Shown: positions 44,057-61,785 of the stretch, piece after piece
Layout: each line of letters opens with the position of its first letter
Position numbering within the stretch: the stretch's first letter is position 1
NCBI GenBank assembly: GCA_003973265.1
Contig: QNYZ01000058.1
Location: 8,079-72,078 of the forward strand
From: Deltaproteobacteria bacterium
GTDB lineage: Bacteria; Desulfobacterota; Desulfobacteria; Desulfobacterales; QNYZ01
Length of the DNA: 64,000 nt
Direction of reading: 5' to 3'
Translations under genes and position numbers: made by a program
The notes under the pieces: generated by a model
Databases searched by the model: none
Told to the model about the DNA's origin: nothing
Seen by the model: the letters and a program-made list of their open reading frames with translations, nothing else

Positions 44057-44165
44057 ATAATTATCATCGGGATATTCGCGGTCTTCTCCTAAACAGGGAA
44101 GGCCCCGGACGGTGGAGACATTTATAAAGCTTATATTGATTGGACAGACAATAAGGAGGGGCTCG

Positions 44166-45269
44166 ATGGCAGCTGTACCTGGAAAAATTATGACATGGCA
44201 GATGGTTCGGCCAACCACCCGGAACAGAGAGACCGGTGAGGTGTTACCGGGTAAACTGGAGAAAAAAGAATTACCGGTACCGGCGCTGAAAGAAGGGGAG
44301 GTGCTTGTGGAGGTGGCCGGCTGCGGGGTGTGCCATACGGACCTGGGATATTTTTATGATGGGGTTCCCACGGTATGTAAACCGCCCCTGACGCTGGGGC
44401 ATGAAATTTCTGGAACCGTGGTGGCCGGTGATGCGGCCTGGATTGGCAAAGAGGTGTTAATCCCGGCCGTGATGCCATGCCGAAAATGTCATCTGTGTAA
44501 AACCGGGCGGGGAAACCGCTGCCTGTCTCAGAAAATGCCGGGCAACAGTATCGGTATTTACGGGGGCTTTTCAAGTCATATTCCCGTTCCCTCGATTGAC
44601 CTTTGCGAGATAAAAAATCGCGGAGATTTTCCGCTTTCCCACCTGGCAGTGGTTGCCGATGCCGCCACGACGCCGTATCAGGCGGCCCGACGCGCCGATC
44701 TTCGTCTCGGTGACCATGTCATCGTCATCGGGGTCGGGGGGGTTGGCCAGTATATGGTCCAGGAAGCCAAAGCCCTGGGCGCGGCCATGGTCATTGCCAT
44801 CGACATTGATCAGGAACGGCTGGATCTGATGAAAAAATACGGTGCCGATGAAGTTATCAATGTGACTGGTAAAAAACCCCGCGATGTGGCCGGCGAAGTC
44901 AAGGCGATCCGCAAAGAGAAGGGGTTGCCCGCCCATGGCTGGAAGATTTTCGAGGCCACCGGATCAAAACCGGGCCAGGAGCTGGCTCTGACGCTGTTAA
45001 GCTTTACCGGTAAATTGATAATTATTGGATTCGGAATGCAGAAAGTTGAATATTCCATCAGCCGCCTGATGGCCTTTGACGCGGAGATTATCGGTACCTG
45101 GGGCTGTCTGCCAGAATACTATTCCCATGTCCTGTCGATGGTCCTTTCCGGAAAAATCGCCCTGTCGCCCTTTGTGCAGACCCGGCCCATGAGCACCATT
45201 GCCGATGTGTTTGAAGAAGCACATACCCAGTCGCCGGACCGGCGCATCATCCTGGAGCCGGACTTTTAA
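44166..45269 (+). CDS. bamQ: Zn-dependent MDR alcohol dehydrogenase, probable 6-hydroxycyclohex-1-ene-1-carbonyl-CoA dehydrogenase
   Basis: Start re-assigned to ATG 44166 (AAGGAGG at 44152-44158), giving 367 aa. It has the zinc ADH motifs GCGVCHTDL and GHEISG and a structural-zinc Cys cluster (CRKCHLCKTGRGNRC). The function is inferred from its position directly upstream of oah. Confidence 0.7.
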   Translation: MAAVPGKIMTWQMVRPTTRNRETGEVLPGKLEKKELPVPALKEGEVLVEVAGCGVCHTDLGYFYDGVPTVCKPPLTLGHEISGTVVAGDAAWIGKEVLIPAVMPCRKCHLCKTGRGNRCLSQKMPGNSIGIYGGFSSHIPVPSIDLCEIKNRGDFPLSHLAVVADAATTPYQAARRADLRLGDHVIVIGVGGVGQYMVQEAKALGAAMVIAIDIDQERLDLMKKYGADEVINVTGKKPRDVAGEVKAIRKEKGLPAHGWKIFEATGSKPGQELALTLLSFTGKLIIIGFGMQKVEYSISRLMAFDAEIIGTWGCLPEYYSHVLSMVLSGKIALSPFVQTRPMSTIADVFEEAHTQSPDRRIILEPDF

Positions 45270-45353
45270 AATGGCTGGCCTGCCGGTCGACTGGCTGATC
45301 GAGCGATCTATTCAACTAAAAAAACGAAACTGAACAACAACAAGGAGACAGAC

Positions 45354-46490
45354 ATGGCTTTAGACTGGATGCCGAGAGATAACGAACCCAAAGATCACGC
45401 CCTGCACCGGGATCCCCACTGGACCACGGAAGCCCCCGGGGTGGTATACGAAAAAAAACCCTTGACCGATCCCAGGGGGAATGTGGTGGAAGGGCTGTAT
45501 ACCGCCTGGATCCGCCTGAATAATCCCAAGCAGTATAATTCATACACAACCGATATGGTCAAAGGCGTCATTGCCGGGTTTGAAAATGCGTCTCTGGATC
45601 GGAGCGTGGTGGCCGTTGTCTTTACAGGAACCGGACCGTATGCGTTCTGTACCGGTGGTAATACCAGGGAATATTCCGAATATTATTCGAGAAGGCCCGA
45701 GGAATACGGCCAGTACATGGACCTGTTCAACCACATGGTCGATTCGATTCTCTCCTGCCATAAACCAACCATCTGCCGGGTCAACGGCATGCGGATTGCC
45801 GGCGGCCAGGAAATCGGTCTGGCGTGTGATCTGGCTATATCATCCGACCTGGCTGTTTTTGGCCAGGCCGGCCCCCGGCACGGCTCCTCCCCGGCCGGCG
45901 GTTCATCCGACTTTCTGCCCTGGTTTCTCACCATGGAAGATGCCATGTGGAATTGCGTATCCTGTGAAATGTGGTCGGCCTACAAGATGAAGATGAAAGG
46001 CATGATTACCAAGGTGGTCCCGGTGTTGAAAATAGACGGTCAATGGGTGAGAAATCCGACCGTTGAAACGGATAAGTATATCGATAACGGCGAGATTGTT
46101 TATGGCGAATATAAGGCCGGTCAGGCCTTTAAAGATGGTAAGGCACTTCTCAGAGCGCATCAGGCCGATGCCGATTTTGAACTGCTGGATAAAGAAGTTG
46201 ATAAAATAATCTGGAAATTTGCCAACCTTTTTCCCGGGTGCCTGGTCAAATCCATCGAGGATGTCCGTCAGAAAAAGAAATTTTTCTGGGATACCATGAA
46301 AAACGATCACCGGCACTGGCTGGCGGCCAACATGTCCAGCGAGGCGTTCCTGGGATTTGGTGCGTTTAATACCAAGAAAATCACCGGTCAGGATACCATC
46401 GATTTTATCAAGTTCCGCCAGAATGTGGCTGATGCCAGGGACTGGGATATGGACATGTTTGCCGAAGTGATGGGAAAACCAGAAGATTGA
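45354..46490 (+). CDS. bamA: 6-oxocyclohex-1-ene-1-carbonyl-CoA hydrolase (ring-opening enoyl-CoA hydratase family)
   Basis: 378-aa extended crotonase-fold protein (VVFTGTGPYAFCTGGN, GGQEIGLACDLAI). Size, the long C-terminal extension and its neighbours (had, bamB-I) fit Oah/BamA. Confidence 0.8.
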   Translation: MALDWMPRDNEPKDHALHRDPHWTTEAPGVVYEKKPLTDPRGNVVEGLYTAWIRLNNPKQYNSYTTDMVKGVIAGFENASLDRSVVAVVFTGTGPYAFCTGGNTREYSEYYSRRPEEYGQYMDLFNHMVDSILSCHKPTICRVNGMRIAGGQEIGLACDLAISSDLAVFGQAGPRHGSSPAGGSSDFLPWFLTMEDAMWNCVSCEMWSAYKMKMKGMITKVVPVLKIDGQWVRNPTVETDKYIDNGEIVYGEYKAGQAFKDGKALLRAHQADADFELLDKEVDKIIWKFANLFPGCLVKSIEDVRQKKKFFWDTMKNDHRHWLAANMSSEAFLGFGAFNTKKITGQDTIDFIKFRQNVADARDWDMDMFAEVMGKPED

Positions 46491-46569
46491 CGATTGGCGA
46501 TTGAATATTGTTGATTGAGACAGATACGCCGGACGCCGGTTGTTCGTTAAAAATTATAGGAATCATTCG

Positions 46570-47124
46570 ATGCGGTACCCCAAAGAATGCGTTCTGAAGG
46601 AATGCCAGGAGGTCGTCATTCGGCCCCTGGCACGTGATGATGAGCCTTTGCTGCTTCAGTTTTTTAACGAGATCCCCGAAGCAGATCGCTGGTACATGCG
46701 ATACGATGTGACCGATATCGGGGTGATTAAAAAATGGTTCGAGCATATCGACTCGGATACCGTGGATTCGATCATCGCTTTGAGCGGTGATCGAATTGTC
46801 GGCCATGGCAGTCTGCATGTCAGAGGGTTCGGCTCCACCCGGCATGTGGGCCGGTTTCGAATCGTTATTCACCCCGAGTTTCGGTTACAGCGGCTGGGGA
46901 CCTGGCTCACGCTTGACCTGATCCAGCTGGCCATGGACAAGGGCCTCGAGATTTTACGGACGGATCTGGTGGCGGGGATCGAAGATGTGGCCATCGATGC
47001 CGTCCGAAAGCTTGATTTTGTTAAACGTGCCGAGATCAGGGACTATGCCAGGGATCCGGAGGGCAACCACCACGATCTGGTGGTCATGATCAAGCGTCTG
47101 CATCGGGGATGGGGGGATTTTTAA
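46570..47124 (+). CDS. GNAT family acetyltransferase (resembles the GNAT domain of Pat-type protein lysine acetyltransferases)
   Basis: Start re-assigned to ATG 46570. It contains VVIRPLARDDEPLLLQFFNEIP...RWYMRY and the acetyl-CoA-binding segment VIHPEFRLQRLGTWL. Confidence 0.75.
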   Translation: MRYPKECVLKECQEVVIRPLARDDEPLLLQFFNEIPEADRWYMRYDVTDIGVIKKWFEHIDSDTVDSIIALSGDRIVGHGSLHVRGFGSTRHVGRFRIVIHPEFRLQRLGTWLTLDLIQLAMDKGLEILRTDLVAGIEDVAIDAVRKLDFVKRAEIRDYARDPEGNHHDLVVMIKRLHRGWGDF

Positions 47125-47129
47125 TCCAG

Positions 47130-47151
47130 CGTCACGACCTGGCGTTTTTTT
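47130..47151 (+). terminator. Candidate intrinsic terminator after the first GNAT gene
   Basis: CGTCA-CGACC-TGGCG forms a short stem-loop, followed directly by TTTTTTT (47145-47151). Confidence 0.45.
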
Positions 47152-47253
47152 GAGCCTTTTTCAGGACGATTCATCCTGTCATTTCAATACCCGTCTGTTT
47201 CCGATCTGTCCGTACAATTGGCTGATGTTCGAGTCAAACGCGGTGCTTAACCG

Positions 47254-47895
47254 ATGAACGTATGTAATTTACCATCCCGGGAAATACCCTGGCCGAATGC
47301 CAACGGTCAGCTCCGGATCCGTTGCGGCTGTCATCCTGAGGAGATCCGGGGATATACCTTTGATGCGCAATTTGGCTCCTATGCGCATTTTCGGTCGTTG
47401 TACACGAAACGGGAAACACTGGAAACGATTGCCGGTCATGACGGTGCCAATGTTGTTTTAGCGCTCACCGATAACAATCATATTATCGGATTCGGCGTCC
47501 TTGATTTCCCCGAACCGAATGAGCGATGGGCCCGGCTGGGCGCCAAGCGGATGATGGAAGTCAAGGCCATTGAGGTCTGCCGGGATTTTCGTGCGGCGCG
47601 TGTGGCCAGCGGTATTCTGGAGATGCTGCTCCGGCATCCGCAATTGGAAAAAATGATCGTGTATATGGTCGGGTATTCATGGACCTGGGACCTCGACGGT
47701 ACGGGAAAGACGCCGCAGGCATACCGCAATATTTTGCTGCGTCTGTTTGCGCGTCACGGCTTTGTGGAAATGCAGACCAACGAACCCAATATCTGCCTGA
47801 AGTCGGAAAATCTATTTATGGCCAGGGTCGGAAAAGAAGTACCTGATGATATTATTCAAAAATTCAAGTGGTTACGGTTTGGCGTGAGGCCTTGA
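47254..47895 (+). CDS. AcuA-like GNAT acetyltransferase (acyl-CoA synthetase-acetylating family)
   Basis: 213 aa. By recollection of Bacillus AcuA, the architecture is collinear: ERW...EVKAIEV.RDFR, YSWTWDLDG, TNEPNI, LFMARVGK and KFKWLRF. Confidence 0.6.
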   Translation: MNVCNLPSREIPWPNANGQLRIRCGCHPEEIRGYTFDAQFGSYAHFRSLYTKRETLETIAGHDGANVVLALTDNNHIIGFGVLDFPEPNERWARLGAKRMMEVKAIEVCRDFRAARVASGILEMLLRHPQLEKMIVYMVGYSWTWDLDGTGKTPQAYRNILLRLFARHGFVEMQTNEPNICLKSENLFMARVGKEVPDDIIQKFKWLRFGVRP

Positions 47896-48135: not shown

Positions 48136-50109
48136 ATGAGGTACGCAGAAACAGGGTTTAATTTGGAAATAGATCTGACCCGGGGAAATATTGAAAAGGT
48201 GGCAACGGATCCGAAAGATACCGAGCTTTACCTGGGGGGGCTGGGAACAAACACCAAGATATTATGGGACAGGGTCCCCCCTGAAACAGACGCCTTTTCG
48301 CCCGAGAATCTTTTAATATTCGGGACGGGCCTGTTGTGCGGTACCGCTGCGACCGGTTGTAACCGGACCATTGTTTCCACCATTTCGCCGCAAACCAAAT
48401 TAATGGCATTTTCAATGATGGGCGGATACTGGGCACCGGAATTGAAATATGCCGGTTACGATAAGGTGGTCCTCCGCGGAAAATCACCGGATCTGGTTTA
48501 TATCTGGATCAACAATGATAAGGTCGAAATTCGCGATGCCTCTCATTTAAAGGGCAAGGGCGCGATTGAAACCGCATCGCTTCTGCAAAAGGAGTTAAAA
48601 GAACCCAAAGCCCAGGTAGCCGCCATCGGTCTGGCCGGAGAAAACCGGGTTTTTTATGCGTCCATCGAGCAGGGCCGTTCCAGTGCCAGCCGGGGCGGTA
48701 TTGGCGCGGTAATGGGTGACAAGAATGTCAAGGCGATCGTTGTTCGCGGTACCCAGGATATCAATATTGCCGATCCTGAAAAATTCATGGATCTCTGCTA
48801 TGAAGTAAACGACTATATCAAGTGGCGCCAGGAGAATCCCATTAAAGGGGTCATTCCGATTCTGGCCATCCTGGGCTCGCCCCAGGAAATGGCCATCCAT
48901 GACGAGCAGTGGCATACCGAAAACTTTTCATGGGGCAATGCCCGTACCCGCCGAAAAGGATTCTGGACCGACGAGGTATCTGAAGAGTGGCTGGAAACCA
49001 TGAACAAAGCCCGGACGCGTTTGATCAGTTGTTATAACTGTCCCATTGCCTGTGGGGCGACTATTTCATTGCCGGGGCTGCCGACTTATATGATGAAGTG
49101 TTTTACGAAACTGACCTATACCATGGCGGCCATGTCGAACCTGGAATTTGGTTTAACCATTGCCCAGCGGGCAACAGAGTATGGCGTGGATGGCTATTCC
49201 GCACCGCAGGTGATGGCGTTTGCCCTGGAACTTCTGGAAAACGGGATTTTATCGGATACGGATTTTCCGGACATGCCGGAAGACAATGAGGGCCGGCATT
49301 TCTACCTGCTTGATAAAATTGTCCGCCGGGAAGGGATTGGCGACGTGCTGGCCAATGGTACCCACTGGGCGGCCAAAGAGATCGGTAACGGGGCCGAGGA
49401 ATACGCCCATAATAATATTAAAAAACAGGAACAGCTGCCGCTCAAGCTCTCCATGCTGAACCCGATCTACTTTTTAATGTATTGTACCGGCGAAAAAATA
49501 AACATTACGCAGATTGAGGGTCAATTTCCCCAGGCTGCTTTTCCCAAGAGGGAGCAGCGGGAAAAATTTGTCAAAGACTGGTTCCAGGTTCCGGATGATA
49601 AGTTCAAGCAATACTTTCTGGACTGGGAACCCCGGGGGGAAAATTCGAATCCGTATTACCCCACGGTTGATATGACCTGCGATATTGTCGACTGGCAGGA
49701 GATGATGCACTATATCGATGATGCGCTGGGTATGTGTGCCGGGCTGTCATCCTTTCATATGAAACCCCCCTATCATATTCACAATTTTCCGCAGTTTATA
49801 ACTGCCGGTGCCGGTATTGAGATGAATGAGGAAAAACTGAAACAGGCGGCCAAGCGGTATCGGACGCTGCTCCGGGCATTTAATATCAACCGGGGGATGC
49901 GGCGAAAAGATGAAAAACCGCCCGAAGACCACTGGAAAAAGCGGTTTCCCGAGTTGGAAAAAGAGCTGCTGGATACCTACTACGTATATAAGGGATGGAA
50001 CGAAGAGGGGATTCCAACCAGAGAATCACTGCATGAGCTGGGCCTTGATTACGTGGCTGAAGATTTTATCTCAAGGGGAATTTTGACGGATGAGGGTAAA
50101 TCTTCCTGA
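48136..50109 (+). CDS. bamB: Class II benzoyl-CoA reductase active-site subunit BamB (tungsten-pterin aldehyde:ferredoxin oxidoreductase family)
   Basis: 657-aa AOR-family protein. Its N-terminus MRYAETGFNLEIDLTRGNIEKVATDPKDTELYLGGLGTNTKILWDRVPPE is very close to my recollection of Geobacter BamB. It is followed by bamC-I in canonical order. Confidence 0.9.
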   Translation: MRYAETGFNLEIDLTRGNIEKVATDPKDTELYLGGLGTNTKILWDRVPPETDAFSPENLLIFGTGLLCGTAATGCNRTIVSTISPQTKLMAFSMMGGYWAPELKYAGYDKVVLRGKSPDLVYIWINNDKVEIRDASHLKGKGAIETASLLQKELKEPKAQVAAIGLAGENRVFYASIEQGRSSASRGGIGAVMGDKNVKAIVVRGTQDINIADPEKFMDLCYEVNDYIKWRQENPIKGVIPILAILGSPQEMAIHDEQWHTENFSWGNARTRRKGFWTDEVSEEWLETMNKARTRLISCYNCPIACGATISLPGLPTYMMKCFTKLTYTMAAMSNLEFGLTIAQRATEYGVDGYSAPQVMAFALELLENGILSDTDFPDMPEDNEGRHFYLLDKIVRREGIGDVLANGTHWAAKEIGNGAEEYAHNNIKKQEQLPLKLSMLNPIYFLMYCTGEKINITQIEGQFPQAAFPKREQREKFVKDWFQVPDDKFKQYFLDWEPRGENSNPYYPTVDMTCDIVDWQEMMHYIDDALGMCAGLSSFHMKPPYHIHNFPQFITAGAGIEMNEEKLKQAAKRYRTLLRAFNINRGMRRKDEKPPEDHWKKRFPELEKELLDTYYVYKGWNEEGIPTRESLHELGLDYVAEDFISRGILTDEGKSS

Positions 50110-50160
50110 AAAGAGACGGCCTCAGATAAAGTGAAAGCATAGAGCACAAAGGAGTAAATT

Positions 50161-50697
50161 GTGACTGGTGAGAAAAAAAAGAAAATAATCAAGACCATCA
50201 GAATTGATGTGGATAAGTGTCATGGTTGCCGGGCGTGTGAGATGATATGCTCCGCTTTTCATGCCAAACCCAGATACAGCAGCAGTAATCCCGCCAGATC
50301 GCGGATTCGTGTTATCCGTGATCCGCTGGCGGATATTTATGTTCCGGTTTATGCGGGCGAATATACTGTTGCCGAATGTGCCGGCCGGGACAAGTATACC
50401 ATCAATGGTAAAGAATACTCCGAGTGCGCCTTTTGCCGGGCTTCCTGCCCGTCAAGAGCCGACTTTAAAGAACCCGATTCCGGTCTGCCGCTGAAATGTG
50501 ATATGTGCGAGGGCGAAGATGAACCGTTGTGCGTCAAATGGTGCACCGTTGATGCGCTCGTTGTTGAAGAAAGAGAAGAAGAAGTGGAGGAAGAGATCGA
50601 ACAGGAAGAACTGGAGGTCGGTCTGGAGGAATTGGCCAGTAAATATGGAATGAATACGATCATGGATGCCATTTCGCGATTATCCAAGAAGGACTGA
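50161..50697 (+). CDS. bamC: BamC, poly-[4Fe-4S] ferredoxin subunit
   Basis: GTG start with AAGGAG upstream. Cys clusters CHGCRACEMIC, CAFCRASCP and CDMC...C, with an acidic C-terminal tail. Confidence 0.85.
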   Translation: MTGEKKKKIIKTIRIDVDKCHGCRACEMICSAFHAKPRYSSSNPARSRIRVIRDPLADIYVPVYAGEYTVAECAGRDKYTINGKEYSECAFCRASCPSRADFKEPDSGLPLKCDMCEGEDEPLCVKWCTVDALVVEEREEEVEEEIEQEELEVGLEELASKYGMNTIMDAISRLSKKD

Positions 50698-50701
50698 ATC
50701 G

Positions 50702-50773
50702 TTTATTGGGTTTATTGAGTTTATTGAGTTTATTGGGTTCATTGGGTTCATTGGGTTTATTGGGTTTGTCGGG
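50702..50773. repeat. Direct tandem repeat, 9-bp unit TTTATTGGG (variants TTTATTGAG, TTCATTGGG, TTTGTCGGG) x8
   Basis: Eight head-to-tail copies read directly from the sequence, beginning 5 nt after the bamC stop, in the intergenic region before bamD. Confidence 0.95.
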
Positions 50774-50866
50774 TTAATTTAGGTTGTTACGTTGAGCGGC
50801 TTTTTTATTCTGTGATTGTATTAATCCGACCCGTTTACCCGTTGACTGAAGGAGATAGTAAAAAAA

Positions 50867-52018
50867 GTGGAAACAGTTGCTCCCTTCATAGAGGTCGTCG
50901 AAGAGATCAAAGAGGCCGGTGGAGAAATATTTAAGCTATGCTTTCAATGCGGATTGTGCGATGCGGTCTGTCCGTGGAACCGGGTTCGTGATTTCAGCAT
51001 GCGCAAACTTATCCGGGAAGCGGCCTTTGGATTAACCGAGATCGATGGCGAAGATCTCTGGCGCTGCACGACCTGCGGGAACTGTCCGACGCAGTGTCCC
51101 CGGGGGGTCAAGCAGATTGATGTGGCGGTTGCGCTGCGCCGTGTGGCAACCGAATACGAAGTTTTTCCTGCATCTGTCAAGTCGGCCAGAACAGCGCGGG
51201 CCAGCTTGATTTCCGAGGGGAACCCCCTTCAGGGAGAGCGGAAAAACCGCTCCCAATGGGCGAAGGATCAATCGATAAAACCGTTCAGCGAAGAGATGGA
51301 GGCGTTGTATTTTGTCGGGTGTTACTTAAGCTATGATCCCAGGATGAAAAAAGTGGCGGTGGCCACCGCCTCCATTCTGAAAAAAGCAGGTGTGGAATTC
51401 GGGATACTGGGCGATCGGGAAAGCTGCTGCGGAGAAAGCATCCGCAAGGCAGGCAGCGAAGAAGTATTTAAAACCCTGGCTAAGGATAACATCAAGACGT
51501 TTATCGAAAAAGGGGTCAAAAAGATCATCGTCTCTTCTCCCCATTGTTACCATACTTTTAAAAACGAATATCCTGAATTCATGGTCCACTTTGAAGTCGT
51601 TCACATGAACCAGTATCTAATGGACCTCATCGAAGACGGGCGGCTTGAATTGAAAGGGGAGTTTTCAAAAAGAGTCACCTACCACGATCCATGTTACCTG
51701 GGACGGCACAACGGCATTTACGATGAGCCCCGAAATATTTTGAACCGGGTGCCGGGACTGGAACTGGTTGAAATGGAAAATTTCAGGAAGAACAGCCTCT
51801 GCTGCGGGGGTGGCGGGGGGCGGATCTGGATGGATACCCCCAAGGAAGAACGGTTTTCCGATATCCGGCTGGAACAGGCCAAAGCGGCTGGCGCAAGCAT
51901 CCTCGCGACTTCCTGCCCATATTGTATTACCAACTTTGAGGAGAGCCGGTTGAATCTGGAATATGAAGACATTGTGGAAATTAAGGATATCACCGAGATC
52001 ATCAATGATATGCTTTAG
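50867..52018 (+). CDS. bamD: BamD, HdrD-like Fe-S protein with two CCG domains
   Basis: [12 protein letters not shown] and [12 protein letters not shown] ferredoxin motifs, plus two CCG-type cysteine-rich domains (CCGES..., DPCYLGR, CCGGGGG, SCPYC). GTG start with AAGGAGA upstream. Confidence 0.85.
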
Positions 52019-52086
52019 AAAGTAAACGCTCGTGCCTGCCGTTTAACCGGCTGATTCAGACATACTTAATTATCAGGAGAAAGAAC

Positions 52087-55000
52087 GTGGAAAACGAAGT
52101 ACTGCCAATCGAAAAGATCCAAGAACTTTCCGAAGTTCTCGGCGATAAAAACTTCGGCGATGTCATGGTTGTGGGCGGCGGAGTGAGCGGTATTCAGGCC
52201 TCACTCGATCTGGCCACGGCCGGATTTAAAGTCTACCTGGTTGAGAAGGGACCCAGCATCGGCGGTCATATGGCCCAGCTGGACAAGACCTTTCCTACCA
52301 ATGACTGTTCGATGTGAATTCTCTCTCCGAAACTGGTCGAGGTCGGCCGGCATCCAAACATTGAGGTTTTGACATTTACCGAAGTGGGAGAGGTAGAAGG
52401 GGAGAAGGGCGACTTTAAGGTCACCCTGGTCAAGAAGCCGCGCTATATCATTGAAGACAAGTGTACCGGCTGCACCACCTGTGTCGAATACTGCCCGGTG
52501 GAATATCCGGACCCGTTCAACCAGGAAATATCAAAAAATAAGGCCGTTCACGTTTATTTTTCCCAGGCGATTCCACTGGTCTCGTATATCGATGAAAGCT
52601 GCCTTTTCCTGAAAGAAAAAAAATGCGACATCTGCCGCCGGGTCTGTCAGACCGGGGCCATTGATTTTACCCAGACGACTGAAAAGACTGGAATAAACGT
52701 CGGCGCGATCATTCTATCCTCCGGTATCACGCCGTTTGATCCCGAAGTGAGGGATGAATATGGCTATACGAAGATGCAGAACGTGGTCACCAGTATGGAC
52801 TACGAGCGCTTATTATCTTCGACCGGGCCATACGAGGGTGAAGTGCGGCGGACGTCTGACAAAAAACATCCCAAAAAAATCGCGTGGCTTCAATGTGTCG
52901 GCTCCCGGCGGGTAACCGAAGGGGATAACAGCTATTGTTCCGGCGTATGCTGCACCTACACCCAGAAACAGGTCATTTTAACCAAAGACCACGATACCGA
53001 GGCCACATGTACGATTTTCCATAATGATATCCGTTCTTTTGGCAAGGATTTTGAGCGATACTTCCAGCGTGCCGAACAACTGCCCGGGGTAGAGTTTATC
53101 CGGAGCTATGCGTCTGTTGTCCGGGAGGTCCCGGAAAGTAAAAATGTGATTATCCGATATGCCACCGACAACGAAGGCGTTGTGGAACGGGAATTTGACC
53201 TGGTAGTGTTGTCGGTGGGACTGAGTCCGCCGGAGGATAACAAAAAATTAGCCGATATATTCGGAATTGAACTCAATGGATACGGATTTTGTGAAGCAGA
53301 TAGTGAAAATCCGATCAAAACCACTCAACCCGGTATCTTCGTCAGCGGTGCCTTCCAGGGGCCGACAGACATTCCCGAATCGGTTTTTACGGCCAGTGGC
53401 GCGGGGGCCCAGTGTGGCGAGCTTTTGGATTACCGGCGGGGCAAGCTGTCTAAAGAAAGGGCCTATCCGCCGGAAAAAGATGTCTCCGGAGAAAAACCCC
53501 GGATTGGCGTTTTTGTCTGTCATTGCGGGGCCAATATCTCAAGCGTCGTGGATGTACCATCCTCGGTTGAGTATGCCTTGAGCCTGCCCAATGTCGTTTT
53601 TGCCAAGGAGCAGTTGTTTTCATGTGCGACCAATTCAGCCCAGGAAATTACCGATCTGGCCAAAGAAAAGGGACTCAACCGTGTGGTGATTGCCGCCTGC
53701 TCTCCTCGAACGCTGGAGCCGCTGTTTCGGGACACCCTTCGTGAGGCGGGGTTGAATCAATACTATTGTGATATGGCCAATATCCGGGAACACTGCTCCT
53801 GGGTGCATGCCAAGCAAAAAGATGAGGCCACGGAAAAGGCGCAGGCTATTATCCGGATGTCAGTGGCCCGGACGGCCCATCTGGAACCATTAAAGGAATT
53901 TGACCTGCCGGTAAATAAAACGGCCCTGGTCGTGGGCGGTGGCATTGCCGGTATGACCTGCGCGCTTTCCATTGCCAATCAAGGCCATGATGTTCATCTC
54001 ATTGAAAAAGAGAAAGAACTGGGCGGAATGGCCTGGCATATTCCCACTACGCTGGAAGGGCTGGATGTGCACGCGTTTTTAAAAGAGACGATCGGCAAAG
54101 TGTATGCCAATCCGCGAATCCATGTCTCCCACGAGGCCACGATCAAATCGGTTACCGGCTATGTGGGCAATTTCGTCACCACGCTGGAAACGGAAGGGCG
54201 GCATAAGGAGATCAAGCATGGGGCCTCCGTCATCGCCATCGGGGCCGAGGAATCCGTTCCGGCTGAATACCTCTATGGTGAAAACGATCGGGTCGTCACC
54301 CACGTGGAGCTGGGCGAGCAGATCGCCCAGGGGGCGGAAACGGTGGCCAGGGCCGAGAATCTGGTGATGATCCAGTGTGTGGGCTGTCGCAATGAAGATC
54401 GAAATTACTGCAGCCGGGTGTGTTGCAGTCATGCGGTCAAAAATGCGCTGAGTTTAAAAAAGCTAAACCCGGCGATGCATGTCTATATCCTGTTTCGGGA
54501 TATGCGAACCTATGGGTTCAGGGAAGAAGCGTACCGGGAAGCGTCGGAAAAAGGGGTTCGGTTTATTCGCTATGATGTGGAAGACAAGCCCATGGTAGAA
54601 GCCGTGGAAGCGGGCGGAAAGTCTCTTTTGAGAGTCATGGTGACAGATCCGATTTTAGGCCAGCGCCTCGAATTAGACGCCGATATCCTTTCTCTGGCGG
54701 CAGCCGTGATTCCTTCCCGGCATACCGAAGAGATCGCCGGGTTATACAAGGTGACACTTAGCCCGGATAACTTTTTTAAAGAAGCCCATGTTAAATTAAA
54801 ACCCGTTGAATTTGCCACAGACGGCGTGTTTCTCTGCGGGATGGCCCACTACCCCAAGCATATCCCGGAAACGATCAATCAGGCCTATGGCGCGGCCGGC
54901 CGGGTATTAACCCTGCTTTCCAGGGATACCGTGGTCGCGTCCGGTTCGGTCTGCGAAGTTAAGGAGTATGATTGTGTCTCCTGCGGGGCCTGTATCACAG

Positions 55001-55224
55001 CCTGCACTTATGAAGCCATCGAATTTGTTGATACGCCCGGGGGCAAGAAAGCCTGGGTCAACCCGATTCTCTGCAAGGGTGATGGGGTCTGCAATGCCAA
55101 GTGTCCGACCAATGCCATTGTTTTAAAACATTTTACCAATGACGCCCTTTTCGGCCAGATTGATGCAGCCATTACCGCTGAAGATATGATCGAACAGATT
55201 GATGCCGTGGCCGAAAAAGTGTAA
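52087..55224 (+). CDS. bamE: BamE, HdrA-like FAD/Fe-S protein (two HdrA modules plus ferredoxin domains), predicted selenoprotein with an in-frame UGA
   Basis: ORFs 52087-52317 and 52369-55224 are in the same frame, with no other stop between them. The junction reads [30 protein letters not shown], the HdrA CSMCIL motif with TGA at the Cys position. Two GxGxxG FAD sites are present ([20 protein letters not shown]). Confidence 0.85.
52315..52317 (+). other. In-frame UGA read as selenocysteine (BamE)
   Basis: The TGA replaces the conserved Cys of the HdrA motif [10 protein letters not shown] stem-loop CTGGTCG-AGGT-CGGCCGG (52333-52350) starts 16 nt downstream and is a candidate SECIS element. 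Confidence 0.75.
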
Positions 55225-55276
55225 ACGGGATAGAATCGATTTCAAACGTGATTGAGCAACCAAAAGGTGAGAGCAA

Positions 55277-56044
55277 ATGAGTCTAAATTCTGAATTTAAA
55301 CCAAAACTACTGGGTTTTGTCTGTCACTGGTGAGTGTATGGGGCCGCGGACCTGGCTGGAGTTTCCAGACTGCAATATACCACAGATATCCGTTTGATTC
55401 GTGTCATGTGTTCGGGCCGGGTCGACCTGGAATTTATATTGAGGGCATTTTTGAACGGGCAGGATGGCGTTTTTATTGGAGGCTGCCGCCTGGATGAGTG
55501 TAATTATGTGACCCATGGAAATTACGATGCCCTGGGCAATACCTATCTGTGCAAGAAACTGCTCGAAAATATCGGCATTGATCCGGACCGGTTGAGGATT
55601 GAATTTATGTCCGGGGCCGATGGCAACATCCTGGCCGATGTCACCTCTGATTTTGCCAACGAGGTAAAGGCGATGGGGCCGCTTGGCAAAGACGAGGGAA
55701 TGGATACCGATGCGGTGCAGCGCCGCCTTAACGCGGTGATGCGCCTGGTTCCCTATATCAAACTGGTGGAAAGAGAGCGGCTGCGGGTGCCCCGCAAAAC
55801 CAGAAAGGCGTACGACGAATTTTTTACCAGTGACGAATTCAACCGGCTGTTTGATGAACTGATTGCCGATAAACTGGCGGTCAGCCGGGTAATGCTGCTG
55901 CTGGAAGAAAAACCCCGGTCGACCGGAGAAATCGTTGAGGCACTGGGGTGGGACCCGTCAGATGTTTCTAAGCATATGAATCGTTCCTCGCAACATGGAT
56001 TGGTTCACTACGATGAAGGCCTTAAACGATATGCGTTGGGATAA
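55277..56044 (+). CDS. bamF: BamF, MvhD-like (methyl-viologen-reducing hydrogenase delta subunit family) protein, predicted selenoprotein
   Basis: ATG 55277 is preceded by AAAGGTGAGAG. The product reads MSLNSEFKPKLLGFVCHW-TGA-VYGAADLAGVSRLQY, the MvhD CxWC-YxGADLAG motif with TGA at the second Cys. The listed ORF 55334-56044 is only the part after the TGA. Confidence 0.8.
55331..55333 (+). other. In-frame UGA read as selenocysteine (BamF)
   Basis: The TGA is in frame with ATG 55277 and with ORF 55334-56044. A small hairpin CTGGA-GTT-TCCAG lies at 55356-55368. Confidence 0.7.
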
Positions 56045-56098
56045 GGGCCTTTTCTAGGCCCGGGGTTAAAGGAAACGGGGAAAATTCAGGAAGCGAAT

Positions 56099-56551
56099 AT
56101 GGATATAGATAGAATCGATCAAATTATTGACAGGCACCAGTGCGAGGCCAGTTCTCTTATTCAGATTTTGCTGGATATTCAAAGTGAGAACCATTGGCTT
56201 TCCAAAGAAGCCCTGACGCGGGTGGGCGAGAAATTACAGGTACCATTTACCCGGATACAGCACATTGCGACCTTTTACAAAGCGTTCAGCCTGGTTCCCA
56301 AGGGGCGCCATGAAGTACATATCTGTGTGGGAACGGCCTGTCATGTCCGGGGTGCCACGCGCATTCTCGATACGGTTAAAGATGTGACGGGTATTATGCC
56401 GGGCGAGACGGACATGGATTTGAAGTTCAGCCTGGAGACGGTGAATTGTCTTGGGTGCTGTGCCCTGGGGCCGGTCGTGGAAATTGACGGAAAAGTTCAT
56501 GGCAAGATGTCGCCGGGAGAGACGGCAGATGTATTAAAAAACTATGAATAG
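56099..56551 (+). CDS. bamG: BamG, NuoE-like [2Fe-2S] thioredoxin-fold ferredoxin
   Basis: NuoE/HoxE pattern with Cys ligands in ICVGTACHVRG and VNCLGCCALGP. Confidence 0.85.
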   Translation: MDIDRIDQIIDRHQCEASSLIQILLDIQSENHWLSKEALTRVGEKLQVPFTRIQHIATFYKAFSLVPKGRHEVHICVGTACHVRGATRILDTVKDVTGIMPGETDMDLKFSLETVNCLGCCALGPVVEIDGKVHGKMSPGETADVLKNYE

Positions 56552-56569
56552 GGTAATGAAGGTTAGATT

Positions 56570-58492
56570 ATGTCGCAGATAAATTCGCCCGCTGAATTAG
56601 ACGCTTTCAGAAAGGGCATCCTGGCAAAAAGAGATCCTGAAACGCCTTGCATTTCAATTTGTGCGGGTGCCGGATGTATTGCTTCCGGCGCCGATGAAGT
56701 GATCGCCGCATTTGAGGCCGAGATCGGTGCACAAGGGCTGGCGGCGAACGTGGTTACCAAAGGGACGGGATGTCCCGGTTTTTGCGAAAGAGGGCCGATC
56801 GTGGTGATTTATCCCGAGGAGATCTGCTACCTCGGCGTCACCGCTGAAGATGTTCCTGAAATTATAACGGAGACCATCAAAGAGAAGAGGGTGGTTGATC
56901 GCCTGCTTTTTGAAGATCCGGCTACTGGCGAAAAGGCGGTCCATGAGTCGGATATCCCCTTTTACCGGAATCAGGAACGAAACGTTATCTGCAACAATAT
57001 CAAGATCGATTCCAAAAGCATTGACGATTATCTGGCCCTCGATGGCTATTCGGCCCTGGCCAAGGCGCTCACCGGGATGACCGATGAAGAAGTTTTGGAA
57101 GAAGTCAAAAAATCCAATCTTAGAGGGCGGGGTGGTGCCGGGTTTCCCGCAGGGATTAAGTGGGAGGGATCCCGCAACGCGGCTGAGAAGACAAAATACG
57201 TGATCGTCAACGCCGATGAGGGTGACCCGGGGGCCTTTATGGATCGGGCCTTGCTGGAGGGCAATCCGCATTCTATTCTTGAGGGGCTGATTATCGGCGG
57301 CTATGCCATTGGCGCTCATGAGGGCTATATCTATGTACGGCAGGAGTATCCCCTGGCCGTCGAGAATATCACCCTTGCCATCGAGCAGGCAGGCGCATAT
57401 GGTTTGATTGGGAAAAATATTCTTGGGTCCGGATTTGATTTCAAAGTGATCGTGCACCAGGGGGCCGGCGCATTTGTCTGCGGTGAATCGACTGCCTTGA
57501 TGACGGCCCTGGAGGGGCGGGTGGGTGAACCCCGGCCCAAATACGTTCGCTCCAATATCAAGGGGTTGTGGAATCGCCCCAGCGTTCTGAATAATGTGGA
57601 GACCTGGGCCAACGTTCCGTTGATCATCAATAAAGGCGCCGACTGGTTTACCCAAATCGGAACCGAGGGAAGCAAGGGGACAAAGATTTTTTCCCTGGTC
57701 GGCAAGATCAACAACACCGGCCTGGTTGAAGTTCCCATGGGCATCAGCCTGAAAGATATTATTTTCAAGATCGGCGGCGGGATTCCCAATGGCAAGGCTT
57801 TTAAGGCGGTGCAGACCGGTGGCCCCTCGGGCGGATGCATCCCGGCCGACCAGTTGGATTTGGAAGTCGGCTTTGATGAACTGACCCGGGCCGGTTCCAT
57901 GATGGGGTCGGGTGGTATGATCGTCATGGATGAAGATACCTGTATGGTGGATGTGGCCCGGTACTTCATCAATTTTCTGACCGATGAATCGTGCGGTAAG
58001 TGTGTTCCCTGCCGGGAAGGTCTGCGGCAGATGCATAAGATTTTGACCGATATCACAGAGGGAAACGGGAAAGAAGGCGATATTGAGCGGCTGGAGCAGT
58101 TGGCGGAAGCGGCCCGGGAGGCATCCTTGTGTGCGCTGGGTAAGAGCGCGCCAAACCCGTTTTTCAGTACCCTGCGCTATTTCAGAGATGAATACGAGGC
58201 GCATATCAGGGAAAAAAGATGTCCGGCCCTGTCCTGCAAGGAACTGATTGCCTACTATATTGATCCGGATAAGTGCAGAGCCTGTATGATCTGCGCAAGG
58301 AAATGTCCGGTCAATGCGATTGAGGGCGGAAAGAAAACAATCCATGTGGTTGACCAGGAAAAATGTACCCGTTGCGGTACCTGTTTTGAAGTGTGCCCCG
58401 CGCGATTTAATGCGGTAACAAAAATATCCGGTCAGCCGGTTCCGGCGCCGATTCCCGTTAAAGAGCGAACGATCAGCAGAAAGAGTAAATAA
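56570..58492 (+). CDS. bamH: BamH, NuoF-like NAD(H)/FMN/Fe-S subunit
   Basis: N-terminal [2Fe-2S] thioredoxin-like domain, NuoF core (GRGGAGFPAGIKW, NADEGDPGAF, ESCGKCVPCREG) and two C-terminal 4Fe-4S motifs (CRACMICARKCP, CTRCGTCFEVCP). Confidence 0.9.
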   Translation: MSQINSPAELDAFRKGILAKRDPETPCISICAGAGCIASGADEVIAAFEAEIGAQGLAANVVTKGTGCPGFCERGPIVVIYPEEICYLGVTAEDVPEIITETIKEKRVVDRLLFEDPATGEKAVHESDIPFYRNQERNVICNNIKIDSKSIDDYLALDGYSALAKALTGMTDEEVLEEVKKSNLRGRGGAGFPAGIKWEGSRNAAEKTKYVIVNADEGDPGAFMDRALLEGNPHSILEGLIIGGYAIGAHEGYIYVRQEYPLAVENITLAIEQAGAYGLIGKNILGSGFDFKVIVHQGAGAFVCGESTALMTALEGRVGEPRPKYVRSNIKGLWNRPSVLNNVETWANVPLIINKGADWFTQIGTEGSKGTKIFSLVGKINNTGLVEVPMGISLKDIIFKIGGGIPNGKAFKAVQTGGPSGGCIPADQLDLEVGFDELTRAGSMMGSGGMIVMDEDTCMVDVARYFINFLTDESCGKCVPCREGLRQMHKILTDITEGNGKEGDIERLEQLAEAAREASLCALGKSAPNPFFSTLRYFRDEYEAHIREKRCPALSCKELIAYYIDPDKCRACMICARKCPVNAIEGGKKTIHVVDQEKCTRCGTCFEVCPARFNAVTKISGQPVPAPIPVKERTISRKSK

Positions 58493-58496
58493 AAAA

Positions 58497-59090
58497 ATGA
58501 GTGATTTTCATTTAGAGATTGACGGAAACAAGGTGGGCGTAAAAGAGGGAGAGACAATCCTTGAGGCCGCCCAGCAGGCGGGGATATACATCCCTACCCT
58601 TTGTCACCACGAAAAGCTGGAACCGTTTGGCGGCTGCCGGATGTGCATCGTAGAAGTAGAAAGTCGCGGACGCACAAAGCTGGTTGTCTCCTGCGTGTAC
58701 CCGGCCGAAGCCGGTCTGGTCGTCAGAACCCGGTCAGAAAAGATCGATCGCATCCGTAAAACGATTCTGGAGCTGTTAATGGCCCATGCGCCGGATTCGC
58801 CGCCGTTGGTGGCGCTGGCTAAGGAGTATGGTGCCAATAAAGACCAGTTTGAAAAAGAGTCTTCATTCTGCATTCATTGCGGGTTGTGTGTCAGGTATTG
58901 TGAAGAGGTTAAGAAGAATTATGCAGTCGGATTTGTTGACCGGGGCGTACGCAAAGAGATCAGTTTCATTCCGGAGATTGCGGCCAAAGTGTGCAATGAC
59001 TGCAAGGAATGCTTTCCTCTTTGCCCCACATCGTATCTCCAGGCAACATTTGTTTTAACAGAATCTCTTGCGTTTCCAACGGTGCCATAA
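58497..59090 (+). CDS. bamI: BamI, NuoG N-terminal-like [2Fe-2S]/[4Fe-4S] protein
   Basis: Plant-type 2Fe-2S motif (CHHEKLEPFGGCRMC) followed by CIHCGLCVRYC and CNDCKECFPLCP. Confidence 0.85.
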   Translation: MSDFHLEIDGNKVGVKEGETILEAAQQAGIYIPTLCHHEKLEPFGGCRMCIVEVESRGRTKLVVSCVYPAEAGLVVRTRSEKIDRIRKTILELLMAHAPDSPPLVALAKEYGANKDQFEKESSFCIHCGLCVRYCEEVKKNYAVGFVDRGVRKEISFIPEIAAKVCNDCKECFPLCPTSYLQATFVLTESLAFPTVP

Positions 59091-59128
59091 ATCGGCGGCA
59101 TCACCTTGCTTTTCAGGGAATAAACCAG

Positions 59129-59941
59129 TTGAGTGCAGGAAAGAATACTGAATCTTGTCAGGTATATCGGTGCAAAAAGGGCGCCTGCCGGCCGCATGCA
59201 CTTGATTTGATCGGGGAAGAACCGCTTCTGATCCGGATTGATGAAAAGCCCTATTCCGTGGTGATGCGAACCCCGGGAGAAGAACTGTTTCATGCCGCCG
59301 GATTCTGCCTGGGAGAGGGGATTGCGGACACCCCGGATGATTTTGCCGCCATCGGGTATTGTAAAGATCTCGATCCGAATGTGATTGATGTCCGGCTGAC
59401 GCCCAAACGGCGTGAACAGATACCGGATCTTCTTAAACGGCGGGGCTTTGTCAGCCAGACCAGTTGCGGTATCTGCGGCAAGGAGATGGTCAAGGATCTG
59501 TACCAGATATTGACACCGGCAGCAGATGGCTACCAGGTGAAGATTGGCCGGATTTTTGACTGTATCGAAAAGCTGTCCGACAATCAGAGCTACTATCAGA
59601 CTACCCGGGGGTCTCACGCGGCCATTATTTTTAACGACCAGCTGGAAATGATTTCTTTTGCCGAGGATGTCGGTCGGCATAACGCGCTGGATAAAACCAT
59701 CGGCAAGGCGTTCATGGCCCGGAAGTTATCTGCGGCCAGTATACTGGTCATCACCTCCCGGCTCAGTTATGAACTGGTTCAACGCGCCGCCCGGGCGCAC
59801 CTGCCGATGATGATCAGTAATTCGCGTCCCACCGCACTGGCCGCTGAGATGGGGCGGGCGCTGAACATGACCCTGGCTTTTCCGGCCAAAAAATCTGAAT
59901 TGATCATCGTTTGCGGCCAGGATCGCATCGTGATAGAATAA
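59129..59941 (+). CDS. fdhD: FdhD-like sulfurtransferase (formate dehydrogenase accessory family); start uncertain
   Basis: LIGEEPLLIRIDEKPYSVVMRTPGEELFHAAGFCLGEGI, the Cys loop SQTSCGICG, and GRHNALDK. The listed start 59009 would overlap bamI by 82 nt. TTG 59129 with AGGGA upstream gives about 270 aa, the usual FdhD length. Confidence 0.75.
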   Translation: MSAGKNTESCQVYRCKKGACRPHALDLIGEEPLLIRIDEKPYSVVMRTPGEELFHAAGFCLGEGIADTPDDFAAIGYCKDLDPNVIDVRLTPKRREQIPDLLKRRGFVSQTSCGICGKEMVKDLYQILTPAADGYQVKIGRIFDCIEKLSDNQSYYQTTRGSHAAIIFNDQLEMISFAEDVGRHNALDKTIGKAFMARKLSAASILVITSRLSYELVQRAARAHLPMMISNSRPTALAAEMGRALNMTLAFPAKKSELIIVCGQDRIVIE

Positions 59942-59973
59942 AATGATAAAAAGCAATCATACAGGAGGACGCT

Positions 59974-60756
59974 GTGAAGATTCTCACAACTGTTAAAAAA
60001 GTAGTGGATGTTGAACTGAACATGCACGTCAAGGATGGCGCGCTGGTTGAAGACGGGATGCAATATGTCACCAACGCCTGGGATGAAAATGCGGTGGAAA
60101 CGGCGTCCCAGTTGAAAGAAAACAACGGGGCGGAAACCACACTGGTGAGCATCGGCGGCGGAGATAACACCGATATTATCCGCCGATGCTATGCCATGGG
60201 TATTGAAAACGGCATCCATGTCGATGATCCGGCACTGGAAAAGGCCGATTCATCAATCTATGCGAAAGTACTGCAAAAAGTGTATGAAGCGGGCGACTAC
60301 GACCTTGTCATTACCGGCAAGCAGGCCCAGGATACGGACAGCGGCCAGACGGGCATTATCCTGGCCGAATATCTGGGACTGCCGTGTGTCAGCAATGTCA
60401 TCGCCCTGGAAGTGATCGATGACCAGCATATCAAAGTGTCCAGGTCCGGGGATACCGGAACCGAGATCGTTGAATTAACGCTACCGGCCGTTATTTCGGT
60501 CGATGTCAGCATCAATGAACCGCGGCTGCCCCAGATGCGGGGCATCATGATGGCTAAGAAAAAGAAGATTACGGAGATGGATCTGGCGGCCCTGGGTACA
60601 TCGGCCGATGAAGTCGGCGCCGATGCTCCCAAATCGGAAATTATCGAATTTATGGCATCCCAGTCGCGCCAGGCCGGGCAGAAATTTGAAGGCGATGCTG
60701 CTGAAATTACCGCCAAAGTGGTCGATCTCCTGGCCAACGAAGCCAAGGTTATCTAG
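59974..60756 (+). CDS. etfB: Electron transfer flavoprotein beta subunit
   Basis: GTG start with AGGAGGA upstream. MKILTTVKKVVD N-terminus, with LVITGKQAQDTDSGQTG and EPRLPQMRGIMMAKKK typical of EtfB. Confidence 0.9.
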   Translation: MKILTTVKKVVDVELNMHVKDGALVEDGMQYVTNAWDENAVETASQLKENNGAETTLVSIGGGDNTDIIRRCYAMGIENGIHVDDPALEKADSSIYAKVLQKVYEAGDYDLVITGKQAQDTDSGQTGIILAEYLGLPCVSNVIALEVIDDQHIKVSRSGDTGTEIVELTLPAVISVDVSINEPRLPQMRGIMMAKKKKITEMDLAALGTSADEVGADAPKSEIIEFMASQSRQAGQKFEGDAAEITAKVVDLLANEAKVI

Positions 60757-60819
60757 CTTGCGAAGATTATTTGAGATCAGTATTTGACACGAAAACGATT
60801 TAGATAAGGAAAACATATC

Positions 60820-61785
60820 ATGGCTAAAGTACTCGTCGTTGCGGAAATCAAGCAGGGTGTGCTGAAAAGCAGTACGCCCGAACTGTTATCAAAAGCAAGA
60901 GCCATTGGTGCTTCGACCGCCGTGGTGGCCATTGGAAGCAATATTGAATCGCTTGTCCCTGAACTGGCAGGTGCCGGATCTGACACCCAGTATATTGCCG
61001 ATGATCCCGGCCTGGAGCTGTTTTCGGCCGGACCGGTTGCGGCATGCGTGGTGGATGCGGCCAGGCAATTCGGGGCCAGTCTGATCTGGTTCGGTTTTTC
61101 TGAAAGCAGTAAAGCGGTGGCGCCGCGGGTGGCCGCCCAGCTGGATGCGGCCTGTGCCACCGAAATCAACGATATCTCGCTCAATGGAGATCAGATCGAG
61201 GTCATCCGGCCCGCCATCACCAATAAGGTGATGCAGCGTGTTAAGGTCAATACTGAGAAACTGGTAGCAGTTGTCAGAGCCGGTGCATTTGAGGCGACGG
61301 AAGGGATCTCCGGAACGGAGAATGTCGTTAAACTCTCCCCGCCCGAGATGGATTTAAAAGCATTGGTCAGGGAAATATTAACGGATGCGAGCGGAGAGAT
61401 TGACCTGGCCGATGCCGATATTGTTGTTTCAGTCGGGAGAGGCGCCAAAGACCAGGCCGGCATTGACCTGGTAAGGGGGCTGGCCGATGATTTACACGCC
61501 GGCTTCGGCTCTTCCCGTGCCATGGTTGACGGCGGGTTCATGGCGCACAACAAGCAGGTGGGCCAGACCGGGAAAATTGTTGCCCCGACCTTGTATATGG
61601 CCATCGGCATCTCGGGGGCCATTCAGCATCTGGCCGGGATGAGCGGTTCAAAGGTGATCCTGGCGGTGAATAAAGATCCCGAAGCACCGATCTTTAACGT
61701 AGCGGATTATGGCATTGTCGGTGACCTCTTCGAGGTCGTACCGATCCTGCAGGAAGAGATCCGTAAAATTAAAGCTAAGCAATGA
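60820..61785 (+). CDS. etfA: Electron transfer flavoprotein alpha subunit
   Basis: C-terminal FAD-binding signature VSVGRGA...SRAMVDGGF...QVGQTGKIVAPTLYMAIGISGAIQHLAGM. Confidence 0.9.
   Translation: MAKVLVVAEIKQGVLKSSTPELLSKARAIGASTAVVAIGSNIESLVPELAGAGSDTQYIADDPGLELFSAGPVAACVVDAARQFGASLIWFGFSESSKAVAPRVAAQLDAACATEINDISLNGDQIEVIRPAITNKVMQRVKVNTEKLVAVVRAGAFEATEGISGTENVVKLSPPEMDLKALVREILTDASGEIDLADADIVVSVGRGAKDQAGIDLVRGLADDLHAGFGSSRAMVDGGFMAHNKQVGQTGKIVAPTLYMAIGISGAIQHLAGMSGSKVILAVNKDPEAPIFNVADYGIVGDLFEVVPILQEEIRKIKAKQ

Follow-up and report, generated by a model that had tools for sequence, protein, structure and literature searches.

Predicted selenocysteine at a conserved in-frame TGA codon of bamF, a subunit gene of class II benzoyl-CoA reductase

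The bamF gene found in the 64-kb stretch of DNA analysed here (the window) very probably encodes a selenocysteine-containing BamF protein, whose codon 19, an in-frame TGA, is decoded by means of a downstream selenocysteine insertion element (SECIS). According to the mechanism that we propose, the ribosome would start at ATG 55277 and, instead of terminating at UGA 55331, would insert selenocysteine (Sec) and continue to a product of 255 residues. A hairpin located 22-40 nt downstream (core at 55356-55368, with a GUU loop) would serve as the bacterial SECIS recruiting the SelB-GTP-Sec-tRNA(Sec) complex, the binding of SelB being itself a prediction. In class II benzoyl-CoA reductase, the tungsten-containing, ATP-independent and electron-bifurcating form of the enzyme, this product would serve as the MvhD-like [2Fe-2S] adaptor subunit. 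Sec19 would replace the non-ligand cysteine of the CxWC motif beside the cluster, where its role is presumably a redox one.

Sec at this place is not unprecedented. Sec19 of BamF from Geobacter metallireducens was resolved by cryo-EM next to the [2Fe-2S] cluster F1, where, as suggested by those who solved the structure, it forms a selenenylsulfide intermediate or acts as an electron relay (bioRxiv 10.64898/2026.04.10.717634). Current compilations of selenoproteins in prokaryotes include the MvhD/VhuD family (PF02662, CxxU; PMC13188914), and the archaeal VhuD contains Sec at two positions (PMC4989117). Both the Geobacter and the archaeal precedents had been named in a preliminary description of this DNA and are borne out by these reports.

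Reading frame, protein fold and conservation of bamF

The features of bamF and the bam cluster described here lie on the forward strand. From ATG 55277-55279 the bamF frame reads MSLNSEFKPKLLGFVCHW, reaches the TGA at 55331-55333 and continues with VYGAADLAGVSRLQY and further to the stop codon TAA at 56042-56044. The complete coding sequence (55277-56044), supported by translation, Pfam and PDB alignment, thus has 255 codons including Sec19. Positions 55264-55273 are occupied by a purine-rich, Shine-Dalgarno-like sequence, AAGGTGAGAG, whose GGTGA core ends 6 nt 5' of the ATG. The mechanically derived open reading frame covers only 55334-56044 and starts with the GTG immediately 3' of the TGA, while the true start lies 57 bases 5' of this annotated one. 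Every coordinate in the preliminary description, from ATG 55277 and the TGA to the 55334-56044 frame and the CTGGA/GTT/TCCAG hairpin at 55356-55368, is correct. The 18-codon open stretch upstream of the TGA is by itself within chance expectation, such stretches being common, and the same applies to the hairpin of 5 bp taken by itself. The significance of both comes from homology and from conservation across species. At the level of sequence, these comparisons demonstrate the reading frame, the N-terminal homology and the conservation of the TGA.

The 18 upstream codons correspond to the first beta-strand and the first cysteine of the MvhD/FlpD fold. With the TGA read as Cys, residues 12-134 (55310-55678) match positions 2-123 of the Pfam FlpD/MvhD profile (PF02662) with 146.5 bits, the cut-off being 22.3. 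The frame starting at GTG 55334 matches positions 11-123 only, with 127.4 bits, and the upstream extension accordingly contributes 19 bits and profile positions 2-10. Solved MvhD chains align with E-values from 1e-40 to 1.6e-29. One of them, 5odc_D, aligns with bamF residues 5-143 (E = 1e-40), its N-terminal segment standing opposite SEFKPKLLGFVCHWxVYGAADLAGVSRLQY of bamF. Homologues of the Cys type, 255-260 amino acids long, contain the motif KPxxLGFxCNWC-YxxADLAGVSR, colinear with KPKLLGFVCHW-TGA-VYGAADLAGVSR of bamF. In P0008, P0009 and others, KPRILGFxCNWC occupies the same columns and the TGA stands for the second Cys of CxWC, so that the window protein reads CHWU opposite their CNWC. The predicted model of P0008, the closest Cys homologue (mean pLDDT 70, moderate), was used solely for placing the first strand of the parallel sheet, which comprises residues 11-16 and lies 5' of the TGA position. 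The preliminary description had placed the bamF N-terminus 5' of an in-frame TGA coinciding with the CxWC motif of MvhD, and had proposed alignment with MvhD homologues as a check. The Cys homologues, the MvhD chains colinear from residue 5 and the conserved upstream frame in all 116 loci of the TGA type agree in supporting this placement and the conservation of the N-terminal residues.

Cys16, Cys45, Cys70 and Cys75 form invariant columns in the alignments (where U19 is conserved with them) and are likely to be the four ligands of the [2Fe-2S] cluster. By analogy with what is stated for Geobacter BamF, position 19 would be the additional, non-ligand Cys/Sec of CxWC beside the cluster. The 255-residue product is considerably longer than the solved MvhD chains (129-141 amino acids). 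Its C-terminal extension, specific for BamF, includes a winged helix-turn-helix of the ArsR type at residues 203-244 (55883-56008; Pfam HTH_5, E = 1.7e-5).

Conservation of the TGA was followed in 115 other loci of the TGA type, from different genomes: the 80 closest ones (species-level genome representatives, 63-87% identical, mostly labelled Desulfobacterales or Desulfobacteraceae) and 35 more. The latter 35 came, together with 38 TGC/TGT sites, from another scan that started from proteins of the Cys type. L001, the genome locus nearest to the window bamF, shares 87% identity with it. In all 80 closest loci, TGA stands at the equivalent of codon 19 and is preceded by M-x5-(F/H)KPxxLGFVCHW. 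It is kept in 115 of 115 loci overall (116 of 116 with the window), and the 38 further homologues with TGC or TGT at the same codon complete a Sec/Cys pair. An ATG is found exactly 18 codons 5' of the TGA in 109 of the 115 loci, and 110 have a Shine-Dalgarno-like motif 4-18 nt from the equivalent ATG. The upstream peptide is kept while its codons vary synonymously: four different codons are used for each of P9, G13 and V15, and two for each of C16 and H17. This pattern indicates that the upstream peptide is under selection at the protein level.

Two residues next to position 19 follow the Sec/Cys state. Residue 17 (codon 55325-55327) is His in 97 of the 115 Sec forms (Gln, Asn, Thr or Ile in the rest), and every aligned Cys form has Asn there. 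At residue 20 (codon 55334-55336), Sec forms have Ala, Gly or Val; nearly all Cys forms have Cys or Ser (CNWCC, CNWCS), with Ala in P0008. The switch at residue 17, His with Sec and Asn with Cys, might hint at a tuned environment of the selenol. Two Sec-type copies separated by about 3.6 kb (locus L111, sites 402 and 4055) are found on a contig assigned to a Dethiobacter alkaliphilus metagenome-assembled genome (MAG). Their N-terminal peptides are identical, as are the first 48 nt 3' of the TGA, suggesting that the module was duplicated in tandem not long ago.

A conserved hairpin downstream of the TGA

The putative SECIS hairpin of bamF extends over 55354-55371. Its core stem pairs 55356-55360 with 55364-55368 (CTGGA/TCCAG) around a GUU loop at 55361-55363, and two extra pairs are formed across a bulged A. 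The loop begins 27 nt 3' of the UGA. Codons 27-31, which encode this region, are nearly frozen in 81 aligned sequences: their entropies are 0.27 (GCT), 0.28 (GGA), 0.42 (GTT), 0.00 (TCC) and 0.59 bits (AGA), compared with 2.0-2.6 bits possible and with 1.2-1.9 bits for the majority of nearby codons of four- and six-fold degeneracy. The RNAalifold consensus of the same 81 sequences is exactly the 5-bp hairpin with the GUU loop. When the two pairs across the bulged A are included, 98.4% of the stem cells are paired. Substitutions within the stem amount to one compensatory change of U-A to G-C (L073) and four changes of A-U to G-U, and support from covariation is thus that of a single compensatory event.

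The decisive control comes from Cys-type homologues, which have the same AGVSR peptide encoded by freely varying codons. The motif CTGGRGTYTCCAG is present at 110 of 116 TGA sites and at 1 of 38 Cys sites (Fisher p = 4e-28). With the comparison limited to loci with the AGVSR peptide, the figures are 109 of 114 and 1 of 21, respectively (p = 3e-18). The six TGA loci without the motif still fold hairpins in other registers or of other sequences: L074 has a hairpin of -13.1 kcal/mol, L130 a 4-bp stem with the loop CGUGU and L141 a different stem of 7 bp. Comparison of the two types of loci demonstrates a constraint acting on the hairpin at the RNA level and tied to the TGA. The single Cys locus retaining the exact hairpin, GCTGGAGTTTCCAGACTGCAATAT, is L081 (1134-1181), which encodes P0008, has TGT at codon 19 and shares 63% identity with the protein of the window. 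Sec seems to have been replaced by Cys in this locus not long ago, the hairpin being left behind as a fossil SECIS.

Thermodynamic stability does not distinguish the hairpin. The 27-nt hairpin sequence shows no excess of stability over its shuffled versions, 65 of 200 folding as well, and the 65 nt 3' of the TGA (-11.3 kcal/mol) fold worse than shuffles (z = +1.87); stability was therefore dropped as an argument. In the bSECISearch model of Zhang and Gladyshev, in the form relayed by PMC13188914, a bacterial SECIS has a loop of 3-9 nt, a stem of 4-16 bp, G within the first two loop positions, 16-37 nt between UGA and loop, and a free energy of -7.5 kcal/mol or lower. Within this outline of the model, the bamF hairpin is in range with its loop of 3 nt that starts with G and U, its stem of 5-7 bp and its spacing of 27 nt. 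It differs in its energy, -6.0 kcal/mol for the hairpin alone being weaker than -7.5, and in being kept as a sequence rather than through covariation. An Rfam scan of 52000-56200 (E <= 10) returned no SECIS family and two chance matches only. A lower stem suggested by the minimum free energy fold, pairing codons 20-21 with codons 33-35, was rejected, as only 79.5% of its cells pair and one of the pairs is mostly broken.

Two codons past the hairpin, codons 33-34 (CAA TAT; 55427-55432) are also uniform in Sec-type loci, with CAA for Gln33 in 75 of 81 and TAT for Tyr34 in 74 of 81. Cys-type loci have a mixture of CAA/CAG and TAT/TAC at these codons. The hairpin, nearly base for base GCUGGAGUUUCCAGA, occurs together with the constrained CAAUAU in loci labelled Desulfobacterota, Dethiobacteria/Firmicutes, Chloroflexota, Acidobacteriota, Planctomycetota and Spirochaetes. 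The SECIS of BamF might represent a distinct, minimal class of bacterial SECIS, with a stem of 5-7 bp, a GUU triloop and an energy weaker than the accepted threshold, a proposal that we regard as rather doubtful. If true, it would mean either that recognition by SelB is sequence-specific beyond the G-U bases of the loop, or that Sec-type BamEF/Hdr-like modules have recently spread horizontally.

Alternative readings of the TGA codon

Even if the UGA is read through, the residue inserted could be other than Sec, or not Sec alone: near-cognate Trp or Cys, or Cys attached to tRNA(Sec) when selenium is scarce. This is the best surviving of the alternatives, and still an improbable one. The functionality of Cys at position 19 in many homologues and the thermodynamic weakness of the SECIS speak for it. 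Against it stand the co-occurrence of the hairpin with the TGA and the presence, in its loop, of the G-U needed for recognition of the SelB type. Moreover, Sec was observed at this very residue in the Geobacter enzyme (bioRxiv 10.64898/2026.04.10.717634), and a lineage tolerating Cys would be expected to fix TGC, which has apparently happened only occasionally, as in L081. We infer that selenium is incorporated into BamF of the window.

Still less probable is that the TGA is a genuine stop, BamF starting at GTG 55334 and the 18 upstream codons being non-coding or forming a short leader peptide. Such a start is what the mechanical list of reading frames and public databases imply: they give 236-residue products, and P0001, 99% identical, begins with VYGAADLAG. 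There is also a GGTGA immediately 5' of GTG 55334, although at zero spacing from it. Yet the codon following the TGA is GCN or GGN (Ala or Gly) in 110 of 115 orthologues, in which no start is possible there, and it is start-capable in just four. GTG 55334 is therefore a lineage-specific Val20 and not a conserved start; orthologues beginning at the equivalent of 55334, which the preliminary description had named as evidence against its reading, are not what the alignment contains. Database proteins begin at four different downstream positions, corresponding to 236, 230, 218 and 212 amino acids, as is typical of gene callers blocked by a TGA. The shortened protein would lack the first beta-strand and Cys16, and selection at the protein level on the upstream peptide likewise speaks against this reading.

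A pseudogene, in which the TGA arose by nonsense mutation or through an error of sequencing, has nothing in its favour besides the in-frame stop itself, and is already refuted by conservation: the identical codon is present in all 115 other loci, whose genomes represent different species, and the remainder of bamF and of the operon is intact. An alternative genetic code with TGA as a sense codon was ruled out: TGA closes 19 of the 53 long open reading frames of the window, and the recoding at bamF is therefore local.

Shortened annotation of Sec-type BamF is systematic in public collections. Most of the 120 closest database proteins listed (P0001-P0120) have 230, 236, 218 or 212 amino acids and start at assorted codons after the TGA. 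Since the annotated product of 236 amino acids is devoid of the first strand and of one conserved Cys of the [2Fe-2S] domain, models and expression constructs derived from it would be wrong. Correcting this very common mis-annotation is one practical value of the present analysis. The other lies in the natural Sec/Cys variation catalogued here, which offers ready-made comparison sets for a residue currently proposed to help the bifurcating FAD receive electrons from the BamF cluster.

The bam gene cluster, bamE and related systems

According to the content and order of Pfam domains, bamF belongs to a complete bamBCDEFGHI cluster at 48136-59090, where it is located between the HdrA-like bamE and the NuoE-like bamG. 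Pfam matches identify bamB (AFOR, 48136-50109), bamC (50161-50697), bamD (CCG, 50867-52018), bamG (56099-56551), bamH (56570-58492) and bamI (58497-59090). This order agrees with the BamBC, BamDEF and BamGHI modules described for Geobacter (bioRxiv 10.64898/2026.04.10.717634).

The bamE gene (52087-55224) is the second gene of the cluster with an in-frame TGA. The codon is located at 52315-52317 in the CxxU motif of HdrA and is number 77 counted from GTG 52087. Starting 15 nt 3' of it, a 7-bp hairpin (52333-52350) carries the loop AGGU, which begins 22 nt 3' of the TGA. In the 75 Sec-type bamF loci for which the bamE motif was within range, the bamE TGA is always present, and codons 5-12 past it show almost no synonymous variation among 76 sequences. 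Two selenoproteins within 3 kb, as claimed in the preliminary description, are thus well supported: bamE bears the same signature of TGA conservation, hairpin and frozen synonymous sites that points to Sec in bamF. With Sec predicted in both subunits, BamE and BamF, the electron-bifurcating core of the enzyme would contain two selenocysteines, from which a selenium requirement for anaerobic degradation of aromatic compounds is predicted. Dependence of the locus on selenium as well as tungsten is a reasonable inference, with the reservation that the BamB sequence cannot tell tungsten from molybdenum. In Geotalea daltonii, selenite amendment led to better growth on benzoate, more benzoate oxidation and higher levels of bamF1 transcripts.

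The nearest known system is that of G. metallireducens. The two share gene order, an MvhD-like domain followed by a C-terminal winged helix-turn-helix extension of about 100 amino acids, and Sec at residue 19; Geobacter BamF was described as an MvhD-homologous adaptor more than 100 amino acids longer than MvhD, whose winged helix-turn-helix contacts BamI (bioRxiv 10.64898/2026.04.10.717634). MAG loci of the Geobacter type (L089, L098) read ...GFLCTW-TGA-AYAAADLAGVSRLQY and have the same hairpin, but Thr at residue 17 where the window bamF has His. The organisms differ as well, the host of the window being an uncultured Desulfobacterales-like organism. Another difference concerns BamE, for which a Cys59-Cys62 pair is given in Geobacter (bioRxiv 10.64898/2026.04.10.717634), whereas the window BamE has predicted Sec in its CxxU motif; Sec77 may be equivalent to that pair. 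A Cys-Sec pair has been considered a possible relay to FAD in HdrA of Methanococcus maripaludis.

Archaeal VhuD resembles the window BamF as a CxxU selenoprotein of the PF02662 family and as an adaptor adjoining HdrA. It differs in its size of about 150 amino acids without the helix-turn-helix extension, in having two Sec positions 50 codons apart, and in employing an archaeal SECIS in the 3'-UTR instead of an in-frame hairpin (PMC4989117). MvhD of Methanothermococcus thermolithotrophicus (5ODC chain D) shares with bamF the colinear N-terminal strand and the CCNWC-Y-GAD-AG motif. It has Cys in place of Sec, comprises 140 amino acids without the C-terminal half, and has a hydrogenase partner rather than the NuoEF-like BamGHI module.

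Among cultured relatives possessing a bam cluster, Desulfococcus multivorans has selA, selB and selD in its genome, and the Sec proteins named in the genome paper include BamE and an MvhD but not BamF (PMC5109826). None of selA, selB, selC and selD was found in the 64-kb window: no SelA, SelB or SelD domain was detected by Pfam in all 50 long open reading frames not already assigned through the analysis of bamE and bamF, and no tRNA-Sec was present.

Outside the bam region the window is ordinary chromosome, with secA, clpA/clpS, folD, dnaB, genes for ribosomal proteins S6 and L9, and cytochrome bd. Four genes precede bamB at 44112-47895. They code for a Zn-dependent dehydrogenase (had-like), a member of the enoyl-CoA hydratase family (oah-like), a GNAT acetyltransferase and a protein of 213 amino acids without a Pfam match, and are probably genes of the lower benzoyl-CoA pathway together with unknowns. 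On the other side (59009-61785), directly 3' of bamI, there is a gene of the FdhD/NarQ family, whose listed start overlaps the end of bamI, followed by etfB and etfA. The position of etfB and etfA downstream of the bam cluster fits a recent report in which an electron-transferring flavoprotein serves class II benzoyl-CoA reductase as its high-potential acceptor.
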